DNA of 64,000 nucleotides from a virus. Taxonomy: Duplodnaviria > Caudoviricetes. The notes beneath the pieces are model-generated. The model saw only the letters and a program-made list of their open reading frames with translations, was not told the DNA's origin and made no database searches. Below are positions 3,556 through 58,495 of this stretch, piece after piece (position 1 is the stretch's first letter; each line of letters begins with the position of its first letter). The stretch is from the IMG/VR virus record IMGVR_UViG_3300027983_002389. One strand, given 5' to 3'. The translations under genes were made by a program, and so were the position numbers.

Positions 3556-3852
3556 TGTCCTGCGATGAGCAGGAACAGATGGTGATTGTGGCCCCAACTC
3601 TCGCAAGAGAAGGGGGCTGGTTCAACACAGTCTAAGAATATAGTGACCCGACTCCAATAGAGGCATGTGCATAGTCTGAACAACGAAGCATGTGCTGATC
3701 CGGGTAGGTTGCTTCGGCGACCAAACACTGTATTTGATATTGGAGCCATCGAACGCAAACGACGGTTTGAACCCGTCAAGAACTTGTGAGTCAAATGCCG
3801 TCAGGACTACATTTGCAAAACGAACGTCTTGGCAATTATTTGTTGACTTGCA
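3556..3852 (+). ncRNA. putative structured non-coding RNA
   Basis: No credible ORF; hairpins TCTC-GCAA-GAGA and GGTTGC-TTCG-GCGACC; closing GATGGT/GCCATC. Confidence 0.45.
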
Positions 3853-10403: not shown

Positions 10404-11127
10404 ATGGTGCGTCTTTGGCTCGAAACTGTGCGGATTTAGACCAACGGGTCGGTTACACTTAGGTCATTATTTCTCGGTGATTCAACCGGGACAGGCTGGG
10501 TGTACTGTACTGGTGGCAAACTATCATGCACCGGAGGTAAATAATCTGGAAGTTTCCGTGAACGCCTTACGGCAATACGGTGTCCAGACCATAGTGATTC
10601 AGAAGGATGTGTTTAACGCTGAATTGTTTTTTCGATTATTGACGCTCGCAAAAATGGGTGATCTTGGTCGAATGACACAATTCAAGTCAACGGAAGAGGA
10701 CGATAGAACTGGTCAATTGCTGACTTATCCTGTTCTTATGGCGCATGATGTTGCGGGTTACTCCGAGGTCATTGTGGGTCTGGATCAGAAGCAGCATTTG
10801 GAATATGCCAGAAAGCTGTTGAAAAAATACAACAGTGTATATGGCACGACATATCCAATCCCGATAGCCAATATCGTGGTGGGACGTGTCAAAGATTTGC
10901 GTGATCCGACGAAGAAAATGTCGAAGTCATCGCCGCAGGGATGTTTATTCCTTGATGATACGGTGGATGATATTCAACAAAAGATTCGGAAGGCGACCGC
11001 AGATGAAGAGGGCCTGAATAACTTGAAGTTTTTGTATGGGGAGTTTGTAAGAGAAACGCCTCCAACAAGCAATCAAGAACTGAAAGAGAAACTGGCTAAT
11101 TCGATTGTTATGCGTCTAAGGTGTTAG
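10404..11127 (+). CDS. trpS: compact tryptophanyl-tRNA synthetase, expressed via putative +1 frameshift at 10413-10419
   Basis: GFRPTGRLHLGHY (HIGH), YPVLMAHD, VGLDQKQHLE, KMSKS; the HIGH segment lies upstream of the listed GTG start. Confidence 0.85.
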
Positions 11128-14790: not shown

Positions 14791-14914
14791 GCCGGGTTAG
14801 CTCAATGGTAGAGCGCCAAAAATACTCTCAGCAATATTTGGGCTTCGGCCATGCTCGTTGGGATTACATTCCATTCTAAGGAGGAGGTTGTTGGTCCGAA
14901 TCCAACACCCGGCA
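14791..14914 (+). ncRNA. Y-RNA-like tRNA mimic, copy 1
   Basis: tRNA acceptor, D and T arms; anticodon replaced by a stem containing ATATTTGGGCTTCGGCCATGC, shared with 38250-38372. Confidence 0.7.
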
Positions 14915-23931: not shown

Positions 23932-24142
23932 CTTTGAGTCAAATGCCATGATGGGAGTACATTCTTTTCAAATGACCCCTCTCATCAAATAATTTGTTGA
24001 CTCATTTTTCTTTATCAAGGGGATGGGCGTGTAATATGGCAGTCAAGAGGAGATTTGTGGAATGTGAATGCGGTGAGGTATTCACGGAAGGCAAAAATAA
24101 TCAACTTGAAGGCACAAACTGGGTTTAGCGAAAAATGATTAT

Positions 24143-25747: not shown

Positions 25748-25808
25748 GCCGACCATACATAAGCCGACCATACATAAGCCGACCATACATAAGCCGACCA
25801 TACATAAG
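25748..25808 (+). repeat. 15-bp tandem repeat x4 (GCCGACCATACATAA)
   Basis: Direct reading; upstream of the clpS SD. Confidence 0.9.
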
Positions 25809-25820
25809 GAGCGATTCAAC

Positions 25821-31742: not shown

Positions 31743-31844
31743 GATCGGATAACTCAGCGGCAGAGTCCACAGTGCGTTCGGGTGGTTTTATAGTTGCCAT
31801 TGCGAATAGCTGTGAGGTCACAGGTTCGAGTCCTGTTCCGATCA
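31743..31844 (+). ncRNA. tRNA-like RNA with extended stem replacing the anticodon loop
   Basis: GATCGGA/TCCGATC-A; canonical D and T arms; CACAG/CTGTG encloses about 37 nt. Confidence 0.7.
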
Positions 31845-33200: not shown

Positions 33201-34097
33201 ATGAACATCACTCGCATTGCACCATCGCCAACTGGTGATATGCACATTGGCACAGCCAGGACTGCATATTTCAACTGGCTCGCAGCACGGGCCAATGGCG
33301 GCAAGTTTATTCTTCGTGTTGATGACACCGATCAGAAGCGGAACGATCCAGCTTACACAGAAGTCATTCTGTCCACTATGAAGTGGTTAGGTTTGGACCA
33401 CGATGAAATCGTTTATCAGAGTTCACGATTTGACGTGTACAAGGATGCTGCTGGACTTCTCGTGAAAGACGGTTGGGCAATTCCAAAGGATGGAGCCACG
33501 GTTTTCAAGCTGAAGCCCGATCATGTTTTTCCTTCTCATTGGAAGGATGAAATAAAGGGCGACATCAAAATCACCAAGGATGACATTTCTCATTTGGATG
33601 GAATGGTTCTGATAAAATCAGATGGAAGCCCTTCTTACAACTTCTGTTCGATTGTTGATGATTCGCACATGGGCGTTAACTTCATCATTCGAGGAGTGGA
33701 TCATATTACGAATACAGCAAGGCAGGTAATGCTTTGGGATGTTCTAAACAGTGGGCGTCCCCTTCCGAGGTTTGCTCATTTGGGACTTATATGTGTTGAT
33801 GGAAAGCCAATATCCAAGCGAGACGGAGCATCGAGCATGTTGAATTACATGAACGCTGGATATGATTCTGATGCTATGTTGAATTTTCTTGCTCGACTTG
33901 GTTGGGGTCCGACAAAGGACGACAAGTCCACGACGTTACTTCCGAGAGATAAGATGCTTGAATTGTTTCTGGTTTCTGGTAAGATGAGAAGCCAGCCAGC
34001 CAGCTTTGATGTTCGCAAACTGGAATCTTTTGATCGCAAGTACAAAGCACGCAAGGGCGCTTGGCGAACAGGAGAAAAGCTGATTCTTAACTCTTAA
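33201..34097 (+). CDS. gltX: glutamyl-tRNA synthetase, catalytic domain only
   Basis: RIAPSPTG.MHIG, LRVDDTD, IRGVDH, ISKR, NFLARLGW. Confidence 0.85.
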   Translation: MNITRIAPSPTGDMHIGTARTAYFNWLAARANGGKFILRVDDTDQKRNDPAYTEVILSTMKWLGLDHDEIVYQSSRFDVYKDAAGLLVKDGWAIPKDGATVFKLKPDHVFPSHWKDEIKGDIKITKDDISHLDGMVLIKSDGSPSYNFCSIVDDSHMGVNFIIRGVDHITNTARQVMLWDVLNSGRPLPRFAHLGLICVDGKPISKRDGASSMLNYMNAGYDSDAMLNFLARLGWGPTKDDKSTTLLPRDKMLELFLVSGKMRSQPASFDVRKLESFDRKYKARKGAWRTGEKLILNS

Positions 34098-35950: not shown

Positions 35951-36458
35951 TTCTCGTGGAACACGGCCTGATGATTGATAATTTTGTTGACCGGGCGTAG
36001 GGTGCCAAGTCTACCCCCGACACACTTTCGGTGCTTGACGACAACGAGCAAACTGTCAATTAGTCTTTTTTTAGGTAGAAGAAAATGAAACGTCGTAATT
36101 TTTTACGAACAATTGCTTTTGGACTGGCATCCAGTGCTTCAATCATTGGATTTTCTGATGGAGAGCGAGACGATGTTGTCAAACGCTCGGTATGGTGTCA
36201 CCAATGTGTGGATCTGCAAAACGTACCGGCTTGGCAAATACAGGACGCAATTGCCGCTGTTGCCGCAATTGCAGATGATGTTTCAAATACAAATACAAGT
36301 ACACTTAGCATAATTGCGATTGGACAGAGTTTTGTGATTTGTCGTAATCTTGAAAGTAATGAATATTTTTTAATCGAAACTTAAAAATCGACTGATGAAA
36401 TGTTCAATACCTTCTCGTGGAACACGGCCTGATGATTGATAATTTTGTTGACCGGGCG
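35951..36458 (+). repeat. 47-bp direct repeats flanking a cassette containing ORF 36085-36384
   Basis: 35951-35997 = 36412-36458. Confidence 0.85.
36085..36384 (+). CDS. hypothetical protein with twin-arginine-like signal
   Basis: MKRRNFL. Confidence 0.5.
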   Translation: MKRRNFLRTIAFGLASSASIIGFSDGERDDVVKRSVWCHQCVDLQNVPAWQIQDAIAAVAAIADDVSNTNTSTLSIIAIGQSFVICRNLESNEYFLIET

Positions 36459-36487
36459 GGTGCGTCTGGTCAAATACAACGAAAGGG

Positions 36488-38203
36488 ATGGTGATGGCTA
36501 ACAAGAATCTTTTCAAGTCCGAGCGTGGCTCGATTGTTCCGGCAACTGACGTTCTCAACGAAGCTGGTGGTACTGCATACAATTTGACTGCAAAGCAGGC
36601 TCTTGCGCAGTACGTTTGCACTAGCTGTTTGAACGGCACCTACTACACGTCTGCCAAGACGCAACTGGACACTGTTCGTCAGTTGTTTACTGAGGTCGAG
36701 CCTGAGTTCCTTGGGCAGTTGGCTGTGTACTCGCACGAAAAGTCCTTCATGAAGGACTTGCCTGCTCTATTGGTCGCATTCCTGGCATCTGACAAGGGTG
36801 CTGGTGGTGGTCCTACTACGGCAACACAGGAGCGGAAGCTGAAGACGCTTCGTAAGGTTTTCCATCGTGTCATCGACAACGGCAACATGCTGCGCAACTT
36901 TGTGCAGATGATTCGTTCGGCGTCATTTGGTCGGAAGTCCTTTGGTGAAGTGCCTCGCAAGTTGATTCGGGACTGGTTCGACAATAAGTCTCCGGCTGGT
37001 ATTTTCTTCCAAAGCATCGGGAATAGCCCGTCACTGGCAGATATTATCAAGCTGACCAAGCCAAAGCCAAATACGCCTGAAAAGGCTGCTGTGTTGGCTT
37101 ATTTGCTGGGTGCAGAAACCGTTGAAGGCGAAGATGGCAAGTTGCTGGTTCGTCGTTATCTCGACCGTGTTGATAAGCAGGTTAAGGTTGCATACTCGCA
37201 GCCTTATTCCAATCTGCCGGAAATCATTCGTGAATACGAAGCGTGGAAAAAGGACAAGAGCCTCCCGGTTCCTGCCATCAACTTCCGTTTCTTGGACAAC
37301 GAGAAGCTGTCAACTGCTCAATGGGCAGATATTGCTTCTAAGGCAAATTGGCTTACGACCCTGAAGAACCTCAACGCATATGCCGACCACGGTGTATTCG
37401 GCGTTGAAGGCATGACTGACATGATCGCCGCACGTCTCAGCAATGCTGACGAAGTGCGTAAGGTACGGGTATTCCCATATCAGATCATGGTGGCTTACCT
37501 CGCAACCGACACGGTACTTTCGCTTCCGCCCAAGGTCCGTAATGCCATTCAAGATGCTATGGAAGTGGCATGTGAGAACGTGCCAGCATTGGGGAAGGTT
37601 AAGTTCTTCCCGGACGTTTCTGGCTCAATGAGAAGTGCAATTACGGGCGACCGTGGTTCGGCAACTTCTAAGGTTCGGTGTGTTGACGTGGCAGCACTGT
37701 TCGCAGTGGCAATGCTTCGTCGCAACCCGGAAGCGGAAGTAATTCCGTTTGAGCAGACGGTTCGTGAGCTTACTCTGAACCCTCGTGACAGCATCATGAC
37801 CAACGCCACGAAGCTCGCTTCGATTGGTGGTGGTGGAACCAATTGTTCGGCACCGCTTGCTTTGCTCAATGCAAAGAAGGATTGGTCGGCTGACGTGTTG
37901 GTTTATATTTCGGACTATGAGTCTTGGGTGGATAGCACGGGCACGGGCTACCAAGCTGGCAATGGCACAGCACTGCTCAATGAGTGGGTGAAGTACAAGA
38001 GCCACAACAAGAATGCCAAGCTGATTTGTATCGACCTGACCCCTCGTACAAATCATCAGGTCAAGGTCAAGGAACACGATGATATTCTCCAGGTCGGTGG
38101 ATTCTCTGACAACGTATTCAACGTGATCGCAAGATTCGTTGAAGGTGGTTGGTCAAAGGATTTTTGGGTCAAGGAGATTGAAAGCGTTCCACTGGATACT
38201 TAA
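36488..38203 (+). CDS. rsr: Ro60/TROVE-vWA RNA-binding protein (Rsr-like)
   Basis: NEAGG.AY, GTYY, VFPYQ...AY, vWA DVSGSM, GGGT, SD.ESW, GFSD.VF. Confidence 0.9.
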   Translation: MVMANKNLFKSERGSIVPATDVLNEAGGTAYNLTAKQALAQYVCTSCLNGTYYTSAKTQLDTVRQLFTEVEPEFLGQLAVYSHEKSFMKDLPALLVAFLASDKGAGGGPTTATQERKLKTLRKVFHRVIDNGNMLRNFVQMIRSASFGRKSFGEVPRKLIRDWFDNKSPAGIFFQSIGNSPSLADIIKLTKPKPNTPEKAAVLAYLLGAETVEGEDGKLLVRRYLDRVDKQVKVAYSQPYSNLPEIIREYEAWKKDKSLPVPAINFRFLDNEKLSTAQWADIASKANWLTTLKNLNAYADHGVFGVEGMTDMIAARLSNADEVRKVRVFPYQIMVAYLATDTVLSLPPKVRNAIQDAMEVACENVPALGKVKFFPDVSGSMRSAITGDRGSATSKVRCVDVAALFAVAMLRRNPEAEVIPFEQTVRELTLNPRDSIMTNATKLASIGGGGTNCSAPLALLNAKKDWSADVLVYISDYESWVDSTGTGYQAGNGTALLNEWVKYKSHNKNAKLICIDLTPRTNHQVKVKEHDDILQVGGFSDNVFNVIARFVEGGWSKDFWVKEIESVPLDT

Positions 38204-38216
38204 TCCAGCTAGGTTT

Positions 38217-38250
38217 TGTTGAGGACCGGGTTGCCGGTCCTCAACTTTTT
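38217..38250 (+). terminator. terminator-like hairpin
   Basis: GTTGAGGACCGG-GTTG-CCGGTCCTCAAC-TTTTT. Confidence 0.75.
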
Positions 38251-38372
38251 GGCGGGTAGCTCAATGGTAGAGCAAAAGTAAAAACAAATCTAAGCGATAT
38301 TTGGGCTTCGGCCATGCAGTTTGGATTACATTAACCAACTTTAGGTTGTGTGTTCGATTCACACCCCGCCAG
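38250..38372 (+). ncRNA. Y-RNA-like tRNA mimic, copy 2 (adjacent to Ro60)
   Basis: TGGCGGG/CCCGCCA-G; AAAGT/ACTTT encloses the stem shared with 14791. Confidence 0.72.
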
Positions 38373-38405
38373 CTTCCAGCAGACAAATAACAAATAAGGT
38401 GATAT

Positions 38406-38522
38406 ATGGCCAAAGGCAACAACGCACAGAAGAACGATAAGAAAGACAAAAAGCAATCCAAGAACTCCAAGAAGTCGGCTGTAACTCAGCCTACTGTCAT
38501 TGGTAAGTCTAAGGGGAAGTAA
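38406..38522 (+). CDS. 38-aa lysine-rich small protein
   Basis: AAGGTGA SD; MAKGNNAQKNDKKDKK...; TAATG coupling to the next gene. Confidence 0.6.
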   Translation: MAKGNNAQKNDKKDKKQSKNSKKSAVTQPTVIGKSKGK

Positions 38523-38750
38523 TGCCGAAAAGGACAAAACATCCTGACGGCTCATTGTGTCTTGACGGAATTCGCAGCACTCGTCGCAATAAACAAGTTT
38601 GTTGCGACGATTTTTACTTCCGAACTGCAACTTGTGTTTACGACATTAGGTATCAGTGGTATAATCGTCACAAGACGTGGGGCATTCCTGTATGTGATGG
38701 CGGGAGTAGCTTCATTACCATAACCTTCTGTCCACACTGCGGAGCTAAAT

Positions 38751-39641
38751 GTGATCCCCGTCAAAGACGACAAACTCCGTCCAGTCCTGGCTGCAATGAC
38801 CGGGACCAGAGCCGAAGGCTTGCTTAGGTTTCACGACGATCATATCGGCGAAATCTTATCGGCAAAAGGATCATCGGGCGGTAATCACCAATCATGGAGT
38901 GGTGGTTTGCACGATCATCTTGTGCATTGTTTTGTTTTAGCACAAGACCTCTACAAGCTATTTCATCAGCGAATCGGCCCTGGTCCTCATGCCGGGCAAA
39001 TGCTCAATGGCGTATACGATAAACGCCCCATCCCGTTTTCGCTCGAAAGCGCCCTCGTGGTGCTATATTTTCACGATATAGAGAAAATATTCAAATACGG
39101 GAACAAACCAAATCGTTATCCTGAGCGACTCATTGAGTCTAAGGACGCTTGGTATCTTGGTATTTTGCCAACAAAATACAATATATCATTTGATGAGCAA
39201 GAATATAACGCCTTGAAGTACGCTCACGGAGAAGGTGACGATCATCGAAAAGATCAGCGAGTTGCCAGTCCATTAGCTGGTTTTATTCATGCCATTGATT
39301 ATCTCTCTGCACGAGTGCTTTGGCAGATCAAAGATTTTGACTATGGCTTGGTCCCAAGAAAAGAACTGCCCACAACAGTTCAGAATCTCCGACGATTACT
39401 GGCAAGGCCGTGCATGGATTGGGCGGCGTATGCCACTTGCTGCAAGGCTGTTGGCAAACGAGTCAAGTACACCGGAACTAATGGTGATGAATTTGACAAG
39501 ACCAATCATGGTCTATTCGTTGAAGGAGAAGGACTTTGCATAGAACAACATGACAGTCATGGCTTGTGCATTATTGTTCAACACGATGATCGCACCACCA
39601 TTTGCGTAGACCCGATTTCTGTTGTAATTCTTGGTGAATAA
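38751..39641 (+). CDS. HD-domain protein
   Basis: HQ.W.GGL.DH, YFHDIEK, YAHGE, IH.ID. Confidence 0.7.
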   Translation: MIPVKDDKLRPVLAAMTGTRAEGLLRFHDDHIGEILSAKGSSGGNHQSWSGGLHDHLVHCFVLAQDLYKLFHQRIGPGPHAGQMLNGVYDKRPIPFSLESALVVLYFHDIEKIFKYGNKPNRYPERLIESKDAWYLGILPTKYNISFDEQEYNALKYAHGEGDDHRKDQRVASPLAGFIHAIDYLSARVLWQIKDFDYGLVPRKELPTTVQNLRRLLARPCMDWAAYATCCKAVGKRVKYTGTNGDEFDKTNHGLFVEGEGLCIEQHDSHGLCIIVQHDDRTTICVDPISVVILGE

Positions 39642-45746: not shown

Positions 45747-47381
45747 ATGATCTACGAAAACACAAACAATACCACCTTCGTCACTACGGCGATTGATTAT
45801 CCCAATGCCTTGCCGCATATCGGCACTGCTTTCGAGAAGATCGGAGCCGATGTCTACGCACGCTTCCGACGATTCCAAGGTCGTGACGTTATTTTCTCGA
45901 TGGGCAATGACGAGAATACCGTCAAGGTTCTCAAAGCAGCTAAAGAGGCAGGGCAAGAGCCAAAGCCTTATGTTGATGACATGGCAAAGGCATTCAAAGA
46001 GGTTTGGGGACAACTCAACATCTCTTATGATGACTTCATTCAAACTAGCGAGGATCGCCATTGGTTGGGCGTACAGCGATTCTTACGAGCAGTCAACGCT
46101 GCTGGATATATCCAGAAGCGTCCATACAAGGCTTTGTATTGCGAGGGCTGTGAAGAGTTCAAGAGTCCAAACAGTCTGGACTACGCAAAGCGTTGCCCTA
46201 ATCACACCGATTCGCCGCTTGTTGAACGAGAGGAAGAGAATTACTTCTTCCTTTTGTCGGCGTTCAAGCAACGTGTTGCCGATTTGATTTATCCGACTCC
46301 GTTTTCGACAATGTTTTTGAGTGTCGAGCCTGAATCTCGATATAACGAAGTCACAAACTTCATCAATACGGACCTGACTGATATTTCAATCAGTCGTCGC
46401 AATGAAGGTTGGGGCATTCCTATTCCTTGGGATGACACTCAAGCCACATACGTTTGGTTCGATGCTCTATTGAACTATTTGACGGTGATTGGATTCGGCG
46501 ATGATTGGGAGAAATTCCATAAGTATTGGCCTGCTGAAGTTCATTTCATCGGCAAGGATATTACTCGATTCCACTGTGCTTTGTTTCCAGCAATGTGTAT
46601 GGCGTACAACGAAGGCTGCGACAAGTTGGGTGAGCCTCAGTATAAGCTGGAAGGTTATCCGCAGCGTGTTTTTGCGCATGGCTTCGTCAATCAGAAGAAA
46701 GGCAATCAGGTTATCAAGGTTTCCAAGAGTGGAGAATCTATTCGTCCAATGGAACTGATCGAACAGTTCGGTTCTGATGCGTATAGATATTATTTCCTGT
46801 CGAAGTTCAACTACGATACGGATGGCGATTACAGTTTGGAACATTTCAAAGACGTGTATAATTCTGATCTCGCCAACTCCTTGGGTAACCTTGTGAGTCG
46901 TACCGTGGGTATGAGCTTGCAGTATTTCGACGGAAAGATTCCAGCTATTGCCGCTGAAGGACAATTGTGGTTCAACGAGCAGGTTGCGACCGAGTACGAA
47001 CAGTTCATTGTTGAATGCTGTTCATTCCGTCATGCCATTGAAATGACATGGAAGATCATCTTTGAAGCCAACAAGCTGATCGCAGACTCAAAGCCTTGGG
47101 AGTTGATTAAGTTGCCGGGTAACACCTGTGGTCAGGTATTGGGGCAGCTTGCTGGTGGCTTGAGGATCATCAGTCTATTGATCCGACCTTTCACTCCAAC
47201 GGTAGCCGAGAAGATTTACACGACATTCCAATGGGCTGAAGGTTGGAATGAAGTTGATTGGGAGTTCGCAAAGAAGTTGGCAGCAAACAATTTCCTGGGA
47301 CTCGAAAATGGTATTGTCTTCAACAGAAATGTTTTGGATGATGCTGGTAAGTTTCCAGTGCTTTTTCCGAGAGTGAATTAA
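45747..47381 (+). CDS. metG: methionyl-tRNA synthetase
   Basis: TTAIDYPN..PHIG, YVWFDALLNY, IGKDI.RFH, KVSKS, DLAN.LGNLVSR. Confidence 0.95.
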   Translation: MIYENTNNTTFVTTAIDYPNALPHIGTAFEKIGADVYARFRRFQGRDVIFSMGNDENTVKVLKAAKEAGQEPKPYVDDMAKAFKEVWGQLNISYDDFIQTSEDRHWLGVQRFLRAVNAAGYIQKRPYKALYCEGCEEFKSPNSLDYAKRCPNHTDSPLVEREEENYFFLLSAFKQRVADLIYPTPFSTMFLSVEPESRYNEVTNFINTDLTDISISRRNEGWGIPIPWDDTQATYVWFDALLNYLTVIGFGDDWEKFHKYWPAEVHFIGKDITRFHCALFPAMCMAYNEGCDKLGEPQYKLEGYPQRVFAHGFVNQKKGNQVIKVSKSGESIRPMELIEQFGSDAYRYYFLSKFNYDTDGDYSLEHFKDVYNSDLANSLGNLVSRTVGMSLQYFDGKIPAIAAEGQLWFNEQVATEYEQFIVECCSFRHAIEMTWKIIFEANKLIADSKPWELIKLPGNTCGQVLGQLAGGLRIISLLIRPFTPTVAEKIYTTFQWAEGWNEVDWEFAKKLAANNFLGLENGIVFNRNVLDDAGKFPVLFPRVN

Positions 47382-51565: not shown

Positions 51566-52789
51566 ATGATTCGTCCAATCCCACTCGCTCATGGCGTCGG
51601 GTTTTTCTCAATGGATCGTTTGCCGCAATATGCTGGCAAGTATCGTGAGGAAAATGTGGGTCGCTATTGGAACTACTATGTCACGCCAGAGTGCCAAGAG
51701 TGGCCAGAGGCGGTGACGTACAAAGGTCCGTATGTGATTGACGGGTTTTCCCCCAATCTCAATAAGAGCCTGCACGTCGGGCATCTACGTCAATTGGCTT
51801 TGGCAAAGTCTTTGGAGAGCATTATGAACCATGCTCAACAAAATCCTCACGCCAAGTTTGTATCCCTATTGGGCGCATCTCAGGGAGTTTTTCAATACGC
51901 TACTGAGCAACTGAATGGTTGGTTCGACTTCTTGAACTTCCATCCTGAATTGCACTATGACGTATTGATGCCACGAGATCAGGAGATCGTTCCTCGTTAC
52001 AAAACCAAGGTGCCAGTCTCTATCTCAACTGACTTTAACGGTAAGCCTTTTGAACATGAGGAAGAGTGTGAAGTGTGGGCCGGTCCCAAAGGGCCTGTGA
52101 TCGTCGTTCGTTGGGATGGTCGTCCTTTGTATGCCTTTCAGGACATTGCCTTCTCGAAGGTGGTGGGTCCAACTCACTACATCACTGGCACGGAGCAGCA
52201 GGAGCATTTTGCCAACCTGGGGCTTGGCGATAAACATCTGCCTATGGGTCTTGTATTGGGTGCTGACGGCAAGAAGATGAAGTCTCGTACTGGCGATAGT
52301 GTCACAGCTAAAGAAGTATTGGATCAGATTGTTTCTCAGCTTGATCCAACAGATGAACCGAACAAGCTGGCGTGGAATGTATTGGCGTGGAATTTTCTTC
52401 ACGTCGCTCGTTCCAAGTCGGTGAAGTATACCCCGGAAGAATGGACAAAGTCGGATGCTCCGGGCATGTATATTTCGTATACTTATGCTCGCATTCAATC
52501 GGCTTTGGCTGGAGAGTCTTTTGAAGAAGGCGATCTGACACAATCAGATGCAGATTTGTTGGGCTTGGCTCGTCAGCACGCCTACGCCTTGCAGCGTAGC
52601 ATTGATTCTCTCGATCCGGCAATGTTGGCAAATTACGCTTACGATCTGGCATCCAAGCTGGGTACGGCATATCATGGGGAAAAGATCAAGGGTGGACGCC
52701 CAGGCTTTAAGAACGCCTTGATGCAAGCGGTGTGGCATCTTCGTTTGTGTATGCACCAACTTGGCATGTTTCCTTTGGAGAAGATTTAA
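51566..52789 (+). CDS. argS: reduced arginyl-tRNA synthetase
   Basis: FSPNLNK.LHVGHLR, EQ..HF, KMKSRTG, Y..YTYARI.S, DALR-like C-terminus. Confidence 0.85.
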   Translation: MIRPIPLAHGVGFFSMDRLPQYAGKYREENVGRYWNYYVTPECQEWPEAVTYKGPYVIDGFSPNLNKSLHVGHLRQLALAKSLESIMNHAQQNPHAKFVSLLGASQGVFQYATEQLNGWFDFLNFHPELHYDVLMPRDQEIVPRYKTKVPVSISTDFNGKPFEHEEECEVWAGPKGPVIVVRWDGRPLYAFQDIAFSKVVGPTHYITGTEQQEHFANLGLGDKHLPMGLVLGADGKKMKSRTGDSVTAKEVLDQIVSQLDPTDEPNKLAWNVLAWNFLHVARSKSVKYTPEEWTKSDAPGMYISYTYARIQSALAGESFEEGDLTQSDADLLGLARQHAYALQRSIDSLDPAMLANYAYDLASKLGTAYHGEKIKGGRPGFKNALMQAVWHLRLCMHQLGMFPLEKI

Positions 52790-56386: not shown

Positions 56387-57559
56387 ATGAACTGGTTGAG
56401 TACAATTCTGGCCTTGGGCGGTATTTTTTTCGGGGTTTGGGCCGTCTTCAAATACCTGATCTTGGTCGAGATCAGGTTGGACGCCAACACCTACAAGACT
56501 CTCTACGAGGTCTGCAAAGACGAAAAGAAGTTCCTCCTCCGTGAAGAGTTCGTCAGCGAGTCCAAGCCGCCAATCTTATTCGTAGCGATATGCGTATTCA
56601 AAGGCGTCCCGTTGTTCTACATCAAACACGAGGAGCGACTGCTGACGGCAGGCTGGTCGGGCAAGGATACCGTGACCACCGTGGTCTGCTTCCGGTGGTC
56701 GGCGGGCCGTCTGAAGGGGTACTTGCGGACCAAGCTGAAGGAACTCCAACTCGACAAGTTGGGCATCCCGGTCGAACTCATCACCCCCAACTTCACCGAC
56801 CGAATCGGCGTGTTGAAACGGATCACTCCACAACCCTACCTCGCTTCAGACGTGTGGCAAGACATCGACGTGGAAGTGGCGCAAGTGTTCGAGGGAAAGC
56901 GGGACAAGATGAGCGCCCTGCTTTATGGGCCTCCCGGCAACGGCAAGACTTCGTTTATCAAATATCTGGCGACTAAATATCGTAAGCCGATCAAGGTCAT
57001 TACCTTCGACCCGCAGTTCACAAACCACGACCTGATGTCGATTTTCTCTCAGATCACGCCGAACTGTATCGTTTTGTTCGAGGATTTCGACAACTACTTC
57101 AATGGACGGGAGTGCATCCTGGGTACGGGCAACACGGGGATTCGATTCACCTTCGACATCATCCTCAACGGCCTCGACGGAGTTTATACGACCTACGAAA
57201 ACGTCGTCTTCATCATGACAGTCAACGACATCGAGAAGGTCGATCCGGCCTTGAAAAATCGCCCCAGCCGGTTCAAGTACGTTCGCAAGTTCGACAACCC
57301 CGACGAAGGACTTCGAGGCCAGATTCTCGGCGATTGGGCCGAGGCCACCAACGGGTTGAACTTGGATCAACTATTGCGACTGCGTGAATTCAAGGAGAAT
57401 GACTTTGATCTCCCCGCCGCACTGAAGAAGCTGGAGAAGTCGATCAAGCACGAGGACATCGAAAAGGTGGCGTATCGCCGGTACGAGGAGCGGCTGCTTA
57501 CCGAGACTGAAGGCAGTCACGAGGACGACTGGAACTACGCCAAGAACCGACTTAAATAA
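56387..57559 (+). CDS. membrane-anchored AAA+ ATPase (BCS1-like)
   Basis: N-terminal TM, GPPGNGKT, FEDFD, LNGLDG, RPSRF. Confidence 0.85.
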   Translation: MNWLSTILALGGIFFGVWAVFKYLILVEIRLDANTYKTLYEVCKDEKKFLLREEFVSESKPPILFVAICVFKGVPLFYIKHEERLLTAGWSGKDTVTTVVCFRWSAGRLKGYLRTKLKELQLDKLGIPVELITPNFTDRIGVLKRITPQPYLASDVWQDIDVEVAQVFEGKRDKMSALLYGPPGNGKTSFIKYLATKYRKPIKVITFDPQFTNHDLMSIFSQITPNCIVLFEDFDNYFNGRECILGTGNTGIRFTFDIILNGLDGVYTTYENVVFIMTVNDIEKVDPALKNRPSRFKYVRKFDNPDEGLRGQILGDWAEATNGLNLDQLLRLREFKENDFDLPAALKKLEKSIKHEDIEKVAYRRYEERLLTETEGSHEDDWNYAKNRLK

Positions 57560-57568
57560 GGACGAACT

Positions 57569-58495
57569 ATGAGCAACGTAATCAAAGAGCTATACGACAA
57601 GGGGCTGACCAACCTGGGAGGACACCGTTGGATGCCGGATAATCTCCATTATGTGACCATGATGGGATCAGTCGCCTATGGAGTATCGAGCGACACGTCA
57701 GATGTAGACGTTTACTCGTTTTGTATTCCTAACAAGGAAGACTTATTTCCACATCTTCGTGGTGAGGTCGTAGGTTTTGGCGATGCAAAACATGCCAACA
57801 ACCGATTTACCAATTATCAAGAACACCACATTAAAGACGTTGGTGCCGAGAAAGAATACGATCTCAACATCTACAACATTGTTGACTTCTTTCAATTGGT
57901 AATGGAAAACAATCCCAATATGATTGACTCTCTGTTTACTCCTCAGTGGTGTGTATTGCACAGCACTAGAGTTGGTCAGATGGTCCGTGAAAAGAGGAAG
58001 ATTTTTCTTCATCTAGGAAGCTGGCACACTTTTAAGGGATACGCATATAATCAACTGAAGAAGTGTGGCTCTAAGAATAGAACCGGGAAACGTAAGCAAG
58101 TGGTAGACGAGATGGGCTTCGACCCTAAGTTTGCTTACCATATTGTGAGAAACCTGGGAGAAATCGAACAGATTCTCACTGAGGGCGATCTGGACCTTCA
58201 GCGAAACAGAGAGCAATTGAAAGCTATTCGCCGTGGGGATTGGTCGCTTGAACAAATCGAAGAATATTTTGAGAGGAAAGAAATTGAGTTAGAAACTCTG
58301 TATAATGAAAATAAAGCCGGTCTACCTTGGGGGCCTAAACATGATGGTCTGCAAGAGAAGGTTAAGCAACTTCTCTTTCAGTGCCTCGAAGAACACTACG
58401 GGTCGCTTGACAAATGTATTGTCAATCCAGACGCCGCAGTGATGGCTCTCCGGGAGGTTGGCGATGTTCTCGCAAAGTACAGAAGCCTTCTATGA
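57569..58495 (+). CDS. Pol-beta-superfamily nucleotidyltransferase (RlaP/YcgL-like)
   Basis: GSVAYG.....SDVD, NPNMID.LF, F.GYA..QL, K..YH. Confidence 0.85.
   Translation: MSNVIKELYDKGLTNLGGHRWMPDNLHYVTMMGSVAYGVSSDTSDVDVYSFCIPNKEDLFPHLRGEVVGFGDAKHANNRFTNYQEHHIKDVGAEKEYDLNIYNIVDFFQLVMENNPNMIDSLFTPQWCVLHSTRVGQMVREKRKIFLHLGSWHTFKGYAYNQLKKCGSKNRTGKRKQVVDEMGFDPKFAYHIVRNLGEIEQILTEGDLDLQRNREQLKAIRRGDWSLEQIEEYFERKEIELETLYNENKAGLPWGPKHDGLQEKVKQLLFQCLEEHYGSLDKCIVNPDAAVMALREVGDVLAKYRSLL

Follow-up and report, generated by a model that had tools for sequence, protein, structure and literature searches.

Candidate Y RNAs of the YrlA type encoded in tRNA order by a phage with a Ro60 homologue

Background

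From bacteria to humans, Ro60 proteins have Y RNAs as obligatory partners, and the features of the bacterial type YrlA include binding of Ro60 (Rsr) in vivo and modification by TruB and DusA. Here we describe two tRNA-shaped genes in a stretch of phage DNA of 64,000 nucleotides (IMG/VR record IMGVR_UViG_3300027983_002389; Duplodnaviria, Caudoviricetes), the whole of which is called the window below. One of them, A (38250..38372, plus strand), follows an open reading frame (ORF) for a Ro60 homologue, and the other, B (14791..14914, plus strand), lies in a tRNA cluster. Both very probably encode Y RNAs of the YrlA type that act as partners of the phage Ro60 and are laid out in the native order of a tRNA.

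YrlA (RF02553; PMC4201824; structure, 10.1101/312249) has its ends in the Ro helix, and its acceptor is a closed stem-loop. Within the Ro handle, ..CGA-AUG.. represents the motif GNCGAAN0-1G of Chen et al. (2014, PMC4201824). Wang et al. (2018, 10.1101/312249) noted that YrlA resembles circularly permuted tRNAs, speculated that some YrlA RNAs are processed to resemble canonical tRNAs, and named the lack of a free CCA end as a major difference between YrlA and tRNA. In Mycobacterium smegmatis, whose YrlA is the sole one with a 7-bp acceptor, RNase P cleaves this RNA and CCA is added to it (PMC4201824). The phage RNAs share with YrlA the sequence and structure of the Ro handle (..GA-AUGC-stem-(C)UAC.. 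and stem-aAaAcUuG-UC..), a D arm, a T arm, a variable loop and an equivalent of the anticodon stem, with the handle at the anticodon position, and they are likewise encoded beside Ro60 on the same strand. Unlike YrlA, they have a Ro helix closed by a tetraloop and an open 7-bp acceptor, carry a tRNA-type 3' trailer and go undetected by RF02553, and in the copies from the window CGAA has become CC-A. An open 7-bp acceptor on a Ro-bound tRNA mimic is also what processed M. smegmatis YrlA presents (Ro binding being putative for the phage RNAs), but there a canonical YrlA is cut into two base-paired pieces, whereas the phage encodes one continuous RNA in that order.

Three further systems are comparable in part. 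Yrn1 of Deinococcus radiodurans is a Y RNA partner of Ro60 with tRNA-like features, and, as in the putative phage partners, a D-like element precedes its T arm; Yrn1, however, has an anticodon-like arm, and the Ro helix stands in for its acceptor stem (PMC4201824), whereas in the phage RNAs the Ro helix replaces the anticodon loop. The Thermus phage phiLo also has a phage Ro60 with phage Y RNAs adjoining its gene; this Ro60 binds the phage Yrl RNAs and the host PNPase, with recruitment of PNPase in vitro (PMC12135203). Its Yrl1 and Yrl2 are canonical stem-bulge-stem RNAs that end in the stem and are without the tRNA body seen in A and B. Circularly permuted tRNA genes, which occur in red algae and some archaea, likewise give two circular orders of one tRNA-shaped RNA, but their precursors are re-ligated to normal tRNAs, while both orders of the Y RNA appear to be end products, with no splicing implied. 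We found no description of genes encoding a Y RNA in tRNA order in the literature searched, which did not extend to the two main reviews.

Results

Architecture of the two genes

An earlier reading of this DNA from its letters alone (the sequence-only reading) had singled out a tRNA-shaped gene after the TROVE gene with an A-rich linker, a stem, an internal loop, GGC-TTCG-GCC and GGATTACATT. All of these are present in A, which shares the strand of the Ro60 gene, starts 47 nt past the stop codon of the latter and runs from U1 to the discriminator G73. It scores 51.5 bits against the Rfam tRNA model, and 58 nt replace the 7-nt anticodon loop. The acceptor 5' strand UGGCGGG (38250..38256) forms 7/7 pairs with CCCGCCA (38365-38371), and the trailer after G73 is CUU. 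The D arm GCUC-AAUGGUA-GAGC (38259..38273) has A14 and G18G19, and is followed by AAAGU (38275..38279), which pairs with ACUUU (38338-38342); this closing stem is the counterpart of the ggcg/cgcc equivalent of the anticodon stem in YrlA. Between its strands lies the Ro60-handle module (38287..38332), which matches the YrlA consensus and of which both helices covary among 40 phage copies. It consists of the stem 5' strand AAUCUAAGC (38287-95), GAUAUUUG (38296-303), the cap GGC-UUCG-GCC (38304-13), AUGCA (38314-18), the stem 3' strand GUUUGGAUU (38319-27) and ACAUU (38328-32), so that the insert folds into a 9-bp stem (AAUCUAAGC/GUUUGGAUU), an asymmetric internal loop (GAUAUUUG/AUGCA) and the cap, with ACAUU on the 3' side. 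The variable loop AGGUU and the T arm GUGUG-UUCGAUU-CACAC (38348..38364) come before the 3' strand of the acceptor, and a pair A15:U48 is possible. In a related 340-kb phage (L002/L004, IMGVR_UViG_3300020172_001601; fetched loci are numbered with L throughout) the 5' acceptor strand of the type A gene reads GGCGG, where the window and a related 78-kb contig have GGCGGG. Such a difference would put the acceptor out of register, and it would therefore be either an assembly error in the G run or a decaying copy.

The sequence-only reading had also claimed a second gene with a different acceptor stem and an identical core, and this we confirm: the 20-mer TATTTGGGCTTCGGCCATGC, common to A and B, has exactly 2 copies in the window against 0.00 expected (100 shuffles), while the two genes differ in their acceptor stems and T arms. 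B lies 8 nt 3' of a tRNA-Glu, scores 47.2 bits against the Rfam tRNA model and has an insert of 65 nt. Its acceptor is GCCGGGU/ACCCGGC, its discriminator A and its trailer CUA. The handle module (14824..14870, plus strand) reads ACUCUCAGC-AAUAUUUG-GGC UUCG GCC-AUGCUC-GUUGGGAUU-ACAUU and differs from that of A by a compensatory change from A-U to C-G; AUGC, UUUG and GGAUUACAUU are the handle elements that we single out in both genes. The T loop UCCGAAU (14895-14901) has C at the near-universal U55, as in the L003 relative, and the T loops of the members G and L147 are UGCAAAU and UGCGAAC. Directly after the module of B comes the conserved element CCAUUCUAAGGAGG (14871-14884, plus strand). The form CCAUUC(N2-3)GGAGG after ACAUU is kept in one subfamily, comprising B, D1 and a copy in a 532-kb phage (L003, L123:6770-6785, L290), and could be the remnant of an anticodon hairpin (UCC-loop-GGA) or a single strand resembling a Shine-Dalgarno sequence.

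Both genes thus have the cloverleaf elements that define a tRNA (acceptor, D arm and T arm), and lack the 5-bp anticodon stem with a 7-nt loop holding U33 and an anticodon; ARAGORN calls neither of them as a tRNA. No close donor tRNA for the two bodies was found in the window, where they show ~70% identity to many tRNAs.

Correspondence with YrlA in permuted order

The RF02553 consensus, 114 nt long as displayed by an Rfam scan of one fetched Ro60 locus, reads 5' cggCga-AUGCu-uggGgaa-CUAc-gcc-uGUu, T arm, closed acceptor and D arm in its first half, and ggcg-uAuG-uucCcca-aAaAcUuG-ucGccg 3' in its second. Going through the phage module from its 5' side, the first strand of the stem corresponds to uucCcca of YrlA, RAUAUUUG to aAaAcUuG, and the 5' strand of the cap to ucGccg. 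The loop of the cap has no counterpart in YrlA, and it is at this point that the ends of YrlA are located. Past the loop the correspondence resumes at the other end of the consensus, with the 3' strand of the cap matching cggCga, AUGCa matching AUGCu, the 3' strand of the stem (..GGAUU) matching uggGgaa, and ACAUU matching CUAc. By this comparison of sequences the tRNA-order RNAs hold the same segments as YrlA in circular rotation, with the Ro helix capped and the acceptor open.

The same result came from rotating eight members in silico at the cap and aligning them to the 114-nt consensus. The permuted forms reached z values of 4.8-8.3 in 7/8 members, while the native forms gave -1.2 to 2.5; for A the values were 7.1 (permuted) and 2.0 (native), and for B 6.5 and 2.5. 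The proposal of the sequence-only reading that these genes are the reverse permutation of YrlA, with a UUCG-capped Ro stem and an open acceptor, is supported by both the segment match and the z values. As in YrlA, the D and T arms of A and B are tRNA-like and have the tertiary nucleotides, and A is placed as YrlA would be, within ~4 kb of Ro60 on the same strand. In YrlA the two ends belong to the Ro helix and a loop closes the acceptor stem, a topology that A and B do not have. On the alignments, then, the tRNA-order RNAs are homologous to YrlA and yet fail its defining topology.

At the site of the GNCGAAN0-1G motif the relatives have GGGA-AUGC, GGA-AUGC or UCGA-AUGC, agreeing in the position of the motif and in AUG(C). 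A literal search for GNCGAA had suggested an insert without a Ro motif, and this was overturned by the full Rfam YrlA consensus.

A family with covarying helices

A degenerate pattern search of IMG/VR brought up a third type, C, and led to a covariance model, R1, and then to a second, R2; on the insert of A they score 69.8 and 58.6 bits. Type C comes from another phage group, has the cap UCCC-GNGA-GGGA with compensatory changes in the outer stem, and is located ~250 nt 3' of Ro60 in an independent lineage. Many more copies came from running R1 and R2 over 80 loci fetched by Ro60 homology, and the diverse modules were aligned by covariance model, a MAFFT alignment being unusable. In 40 phage copies 85.5% of the cells of the handle helices are paired, against 59.4% in shuffles, and there are 134 double-sided changes in these helices against 43.6 in shuffles, every slid register being far lower. 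The tRNA body is conserved along with the handle. Among ten members drawn from seven lineages no two acceptor stems are the same, nine of the stems being paired at 7/7 positions and one at 6/7; the D and T stems covary in the same set, and U8, A14, G18G19 and the T-loop positions U54, C56 and A58 are conserved in most members, B having C at 55. Counted by contig group, the tRNA-order design occurs in at least nine phage lineages, one of which is the 532-kb phage with four tRNA-order copies.

Linkage to Ro60

The Ro60 (Rsr/TROVE) homologue of the window (36488..38203, plus strand; 571 aa) has matches in both Pfam and the PDB, and its likely start is the ATG at 36494, since the homologues begin MANK. 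In Pfam the ORF matches vWA_Ro60 (1.8e-17) and, weakly, TROVE (20.9 bits, below the cut-off of 23). In the PDB it has near full-length matches to Rsr of D. radiodurans (2nvo; residues 20-553, 5.5e-16), 9nen (RO60) and 1yvp (Xenopus Ro60), and it matches, distantly (E 5e-9), the phage phiLo Ro60 (9kop/9l5y). As judged from these matches the ORF fits the definition of the family, a TROVE ring of HEAT repeats with a C-terminal vWA domain. The homologues used here, from 80 viral and 80 bacterial loci, are 38-94% identical.

At E values up to 1, R2 matched 44 times across 849 kb of phage Ro60 loci; 43 of these matches share the strand of Ro60, and most lie immediately 3' of the gene. In 775 kb of unrelated viral loci it matched once. 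The reverse test used two pattern scans for the RNA only, which found convincing tRNA-order members in 13 viral records. Ro60 of the same clade is encoded in 12 of the 13, the exception being a fragment estimated as 24% complete, and in 7/7 of those that are at least 90% complete; of five control records with chance matches to the pattern, none encodes Ro60 (0/5). The background frequency is 151 records matching the Ro60 of the window among 50,697 phage records. The linkage therefore holds in both directions, and the co-occurrence with TROVE genes, which the sequence-only reading had put forward as a check, was borne out.

Canonical-order Y RNAs in phages and in bacteria

The bacterial sample consisted of 80 Ro60 loci from Acidobacteriota, Planctomycetota, Verrucomicrobiota and others. 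In these loci R2 had 128 matches, all on the Ro60 strand, but in these the terminal strands form 6-12 bp with the preceding unit instead of pairing across the cap. Such long-cap matches of R1 and R2 (L153, L113, L110, L121 and L145 among the phages, and all 128 in bacteria) were excluded from the tRNA-order members, since the pairing of the terminal strands and the locus maps show them to be junctions in tandem arrays of canonical Y RNAs, where the 3' strand of one RNA is followed by the 5' strand of the next. Of the bacterial loci matched by a script for the tRNA order (L241, L265, L235 and L192), three were also rejected: the maps of L241 and L265, with T arm, closed acceptor loop and D arm, are those of canonical YrlA in tandem, and L235 fits by its pairing. 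The tRNA order was not confirmed in the 80 sampled bacterial loci (from which cyanobacteria are absent). Pairing and locus maps give the canonical order as that of the bacterial sample and of some phages of the same clade, an example being phage L121, where a canonical YrlA with its acceptor closed by CUUCGG directly follows Ro60. On this comparison of sequences the tRNA order is a distinct variant, found in this analysis in phages only.

The phage of the window also appears to have both orders. Two small RNAs in canonical order, YrlB-like and without a tRNA domain, are encoded at 3787..3850 and 23935..24009 (plus strand). The first is laid out as UGAGUCAA-AUGCC-GUCAGGAC-UACAUU-loop-GUCUUGGC-AAUUAUUUG-UUGACUUG, and the second has an 8-bp terminal stem UGAGUCAA/UUGACUCA followed by U5. 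Both begin UGAGUCAAAUGCC and carry the same Ro handle as A and B, and the related 340-kb phage has both of them, differing in loops alone. Together with A and B this gives the phage four putative Ro60 partners in two topologies.

Among phage loci of the same clade, two Rfam matches lie below the gathering scores, a full-length canonical YrlA at L113:6850-6988 (45.3 bits) and a YrlB-like RNA at L110:6342-6414 (29 bits), both within arrays of at least five Y RNAs after Ro60; L113 also has a match to permuted tmRNA (40.4 bits). The Rizal locus has a local YrlA match of 36 bits, and the Ro locus of Myrna has no YrlA at E values up to 1. A tRNA with an odd anticodon arm after Ro60 in L005 was rejected as a member, being a normal tRNA-Thr(CGU).

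tRNA-type 3' ends

In 32/40 true tRNAs of the window the discriminator is directly followed by CU and not by CCA (for example at the tRNA ends 8127, 8313, 14781 and 27454), the trailers being CUU in 11, CUG in 11, CUA in 7 and CUC in 3. The CU trailer is shared by A (G followed by CUU) and B (A followed by CUA), and also by the copies in the 532-kb phage and most other tRNA-order members examined. It looks like a 3' signature specific to the phage, one possibility being that C74 is encoded and the rest added. The trailer, the 7-bp acceptor and the location in or beside tRNA operons would fit processing by RNase P and 3' tRNA-processing enzymes followed by CCA addition, and the conserved U8, A14, G18G19 and T-loop positions likewise favour a maturation like that of tRNA.

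Discussion

The handle of these RNAs is homologous to that of YrlA, their architecture is that of a tRNA and their topology is permuted, and the genes are conserved, covary and are genetically linked to Ro60. The interpretation that we consider very probable is that A and B are YrlA-type Y RNAs and Ro60 partners encoded in native tRNA order, and it is supported by the two small canonical Y RNAs of the window, which use the same handle. Several findings weigh against it. Pairwise alignment to a canonical YrlA from a phage (L113) preferred the permuted form for type C only and was ambiguous for A and B, the consensus-based test being clearer. The literal GNCGAAN0-1G motif is degenerate in A and B (CGGCC-AUGC, without GAA). 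The gathering score of RF02553 (69 bits) is not reached, there being no YrlA match on A and only one near B, at 16.5 bits and of the type of false positive given by dimeric tRNAs; this weighs little either way, because the covariance model cannot align a permuted RNA. B, on the same strand as Ro60, is 21.6 kb upstream of it. A strong terminator-like hairpin (38218..38250, plus strand; 12 bp, 8 of them G-C) stands directly 5' of A, its T run abutting the first base of the gene, and no promoter was predicted between the two; the hairpin presumably acts as a terminator or as a 3' stabiliser of the mRNA. A Ro60 of this clade is missing from one complete record, of 229 kb, that holds a doubtful member. 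Finally, the expression, mature ends, CCA and Ro60 binding of A and B are what we infer from their sequences.

The first alternative to consider is that these are tRNA-shaped RNAs with a Y-RNA-like hairpin that act independently of Ro60, as decoys or sponges for host anticodon nucleases or tRNA-binding defence proteins, or as regulators of the phage synthetases, the proximity to Ro60 being a by-product of residence in tRNA clusters. The distant position of B within a tRNA array, the clear selection on the tRNA body, the wealth of tRNA-related genes in the window (four synthetase-like genes and the RlaP nucleotidyltransferase) and the Ro60-free complete record all speak for such a role. We nevertheless regard it as unlikely, since what is conserved in the insert is precisely the Ro handle of YrlA, the same phage has this handle in small Y RNAs free of any tRNA part, and Ro60 accompanies the RNAs in 12/13 records against 0/5 controls.

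That A and B are ordinary tRNA genes with a small intron, spliced to functional tRNAs, is very improbable. The insert does lie in the anticodon loop, the site of tRNA introns in bacteria and phages, and after the module there is a hairpin with a 7-nt loop in B (AUUCUAA) and in type C (CUGGUAU). To our knowledge, however, the tRNA introns of bacteria and phages belong to group I and exceed 200 nt. The inserts, of 58-65 nt, have neither this length nor the P1-P9 core, and no Rfam intron or ribozyme matched at E values up to 10. No U33-NNN-R37 loop remains once the insert of A is taken out, the 7-nt loop of B differs in its closest relative (AUUCUAA against ACUCGGA), and the insert is conserved and covaries as the YrlA helix. 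It is scarcely credible, in turn, that the tRNA order is an artefact, either of tandem canonical Y RNAs, where the 3' half of one meets the 5' half of the next, or of decayed pseudo-tRNAs. Tandem junctions do explain most of the bacterial R2 matches and several in phages (L153, L121, L241 and L265 being examples). In A and B, however, a UUCG loop of 4 nt on a stem of 3 bp connects the halves of the handle, and there is neither a T arm upstream nor a D arm downstream, the flanks being the Ro60 coding sequence and the hairpin before A, an intact tRNA-Glu before B, and ORFs downstream. With a tetraloop as the cap and without these arms the two genes cannot be junctions of two RNAs, and such genes are kept with compensatory changes in at least nine lineages.

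If A and B are Ro60 partners in tRNA order, a pathway can be envisioned in which A would be transcribed with the Ro60 gene and B with the tRNA operon, and RNase P and the 3' tRNA-processing enzymes would excise the RNAs; the proposed excision would place their ends in the acceptor stem, which would probably be completed to CCA by the CCA-adding enzyme. The capped helix would dock on the outside of the ring formed by the phage Ro60, like the helices of Y RNAs, and the tRNA-shaped half with its free acceptor end would be offered to a partner that handles tRNA or RNA, candidates being the host PNPase (as in RYPER-type complexes) and RNA-repair enzymes. The tRNA order would remove the need for a promoter and terminator of its own to define the ends, and would let the phage put Y RNA genes anywhere in a tRNA operon.

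Going further, it is possible, though we are doubtful of it, that the tRNA-order Y RNAs carry a real CCA and are recognised as tRNAs, that is charged, bound by EF-Tu, or taken as substrates by tRNA repair or tRNA-cleaving defence. Were this joint and tentative reading true, Ro60 would be physically coupled to the tRNA-handling machinery in infection, for example as a tethered decoy or sensor for anticodon-nuclease defences. The RNAs could then also represent a living intermediate, with YrlA derived from a tRNA whose anticodon arm gained the Ro handle, and the canonical order could have been made by a shift of the transcription unit within tandem arrays.

A family that combines the Ro handle with a restored open acceptor would give a direct handle on the purpose of the tRNA-like half of YrlA, and it implies that some Y RNAs escape searches with RF02553. 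Phages could place Y RNA genes in tRNA operons without dedicated promoters. The presence of both circular orders within one Ro60 clade is relevant to the proposal that Y RNAs originated from tRNA.

Other features of the window

The window is the tRNA-rich part of a large phage, with 40 tRNAs called by ARAGORN and 42 by Rfam. Its nearest relatives are the 340-kb and 78-kb IMG/VR contigs, and a search for near-identity with positions 36000-39000 gave no match among the 50,697 phage records. Four synthetase-like ORFs on the plus strand (33201-34097, 45747-47381, 51566-52789 and 10477-11127) include a GluRS/GlnRS of 298 aa with the catalytic domain only (5.7e-63), a MetRS (8.9e-84), an ArgRS-like protein with a DALR domain and a short protein of 216 aa resembling TrpRS/TyrRS. 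RlaP, a pol-beta nucleotidyltransferase of an RNA-repair pathway (57569-58495, plus strand; 3.3e-14), adjoins an AAA ATPase (56387-57559) and is possibly an enzyme of RNA end healing or tailing. The context of these genes is compatible with a role in controlling damage to tRNA and other RNA during infection.

A third over-long tRNA-shaped gene, of 101 nt, is found at 31743-31843 (plus strand) and again at L107:655-756. It has the acceptor GAUCGGA/UCCGAUC, a D arm, a T arm, a closing stem CACAG/CUGUG and an insert of 37 nt without the Ro handle; neither ARAGORN nor Rfam at the gathering score calls it. At 25755-25810 (plus strand) a regular-expression listing shows at least three head-to-tail copies of the 15-nt unit ATACATAAGCCGACC.

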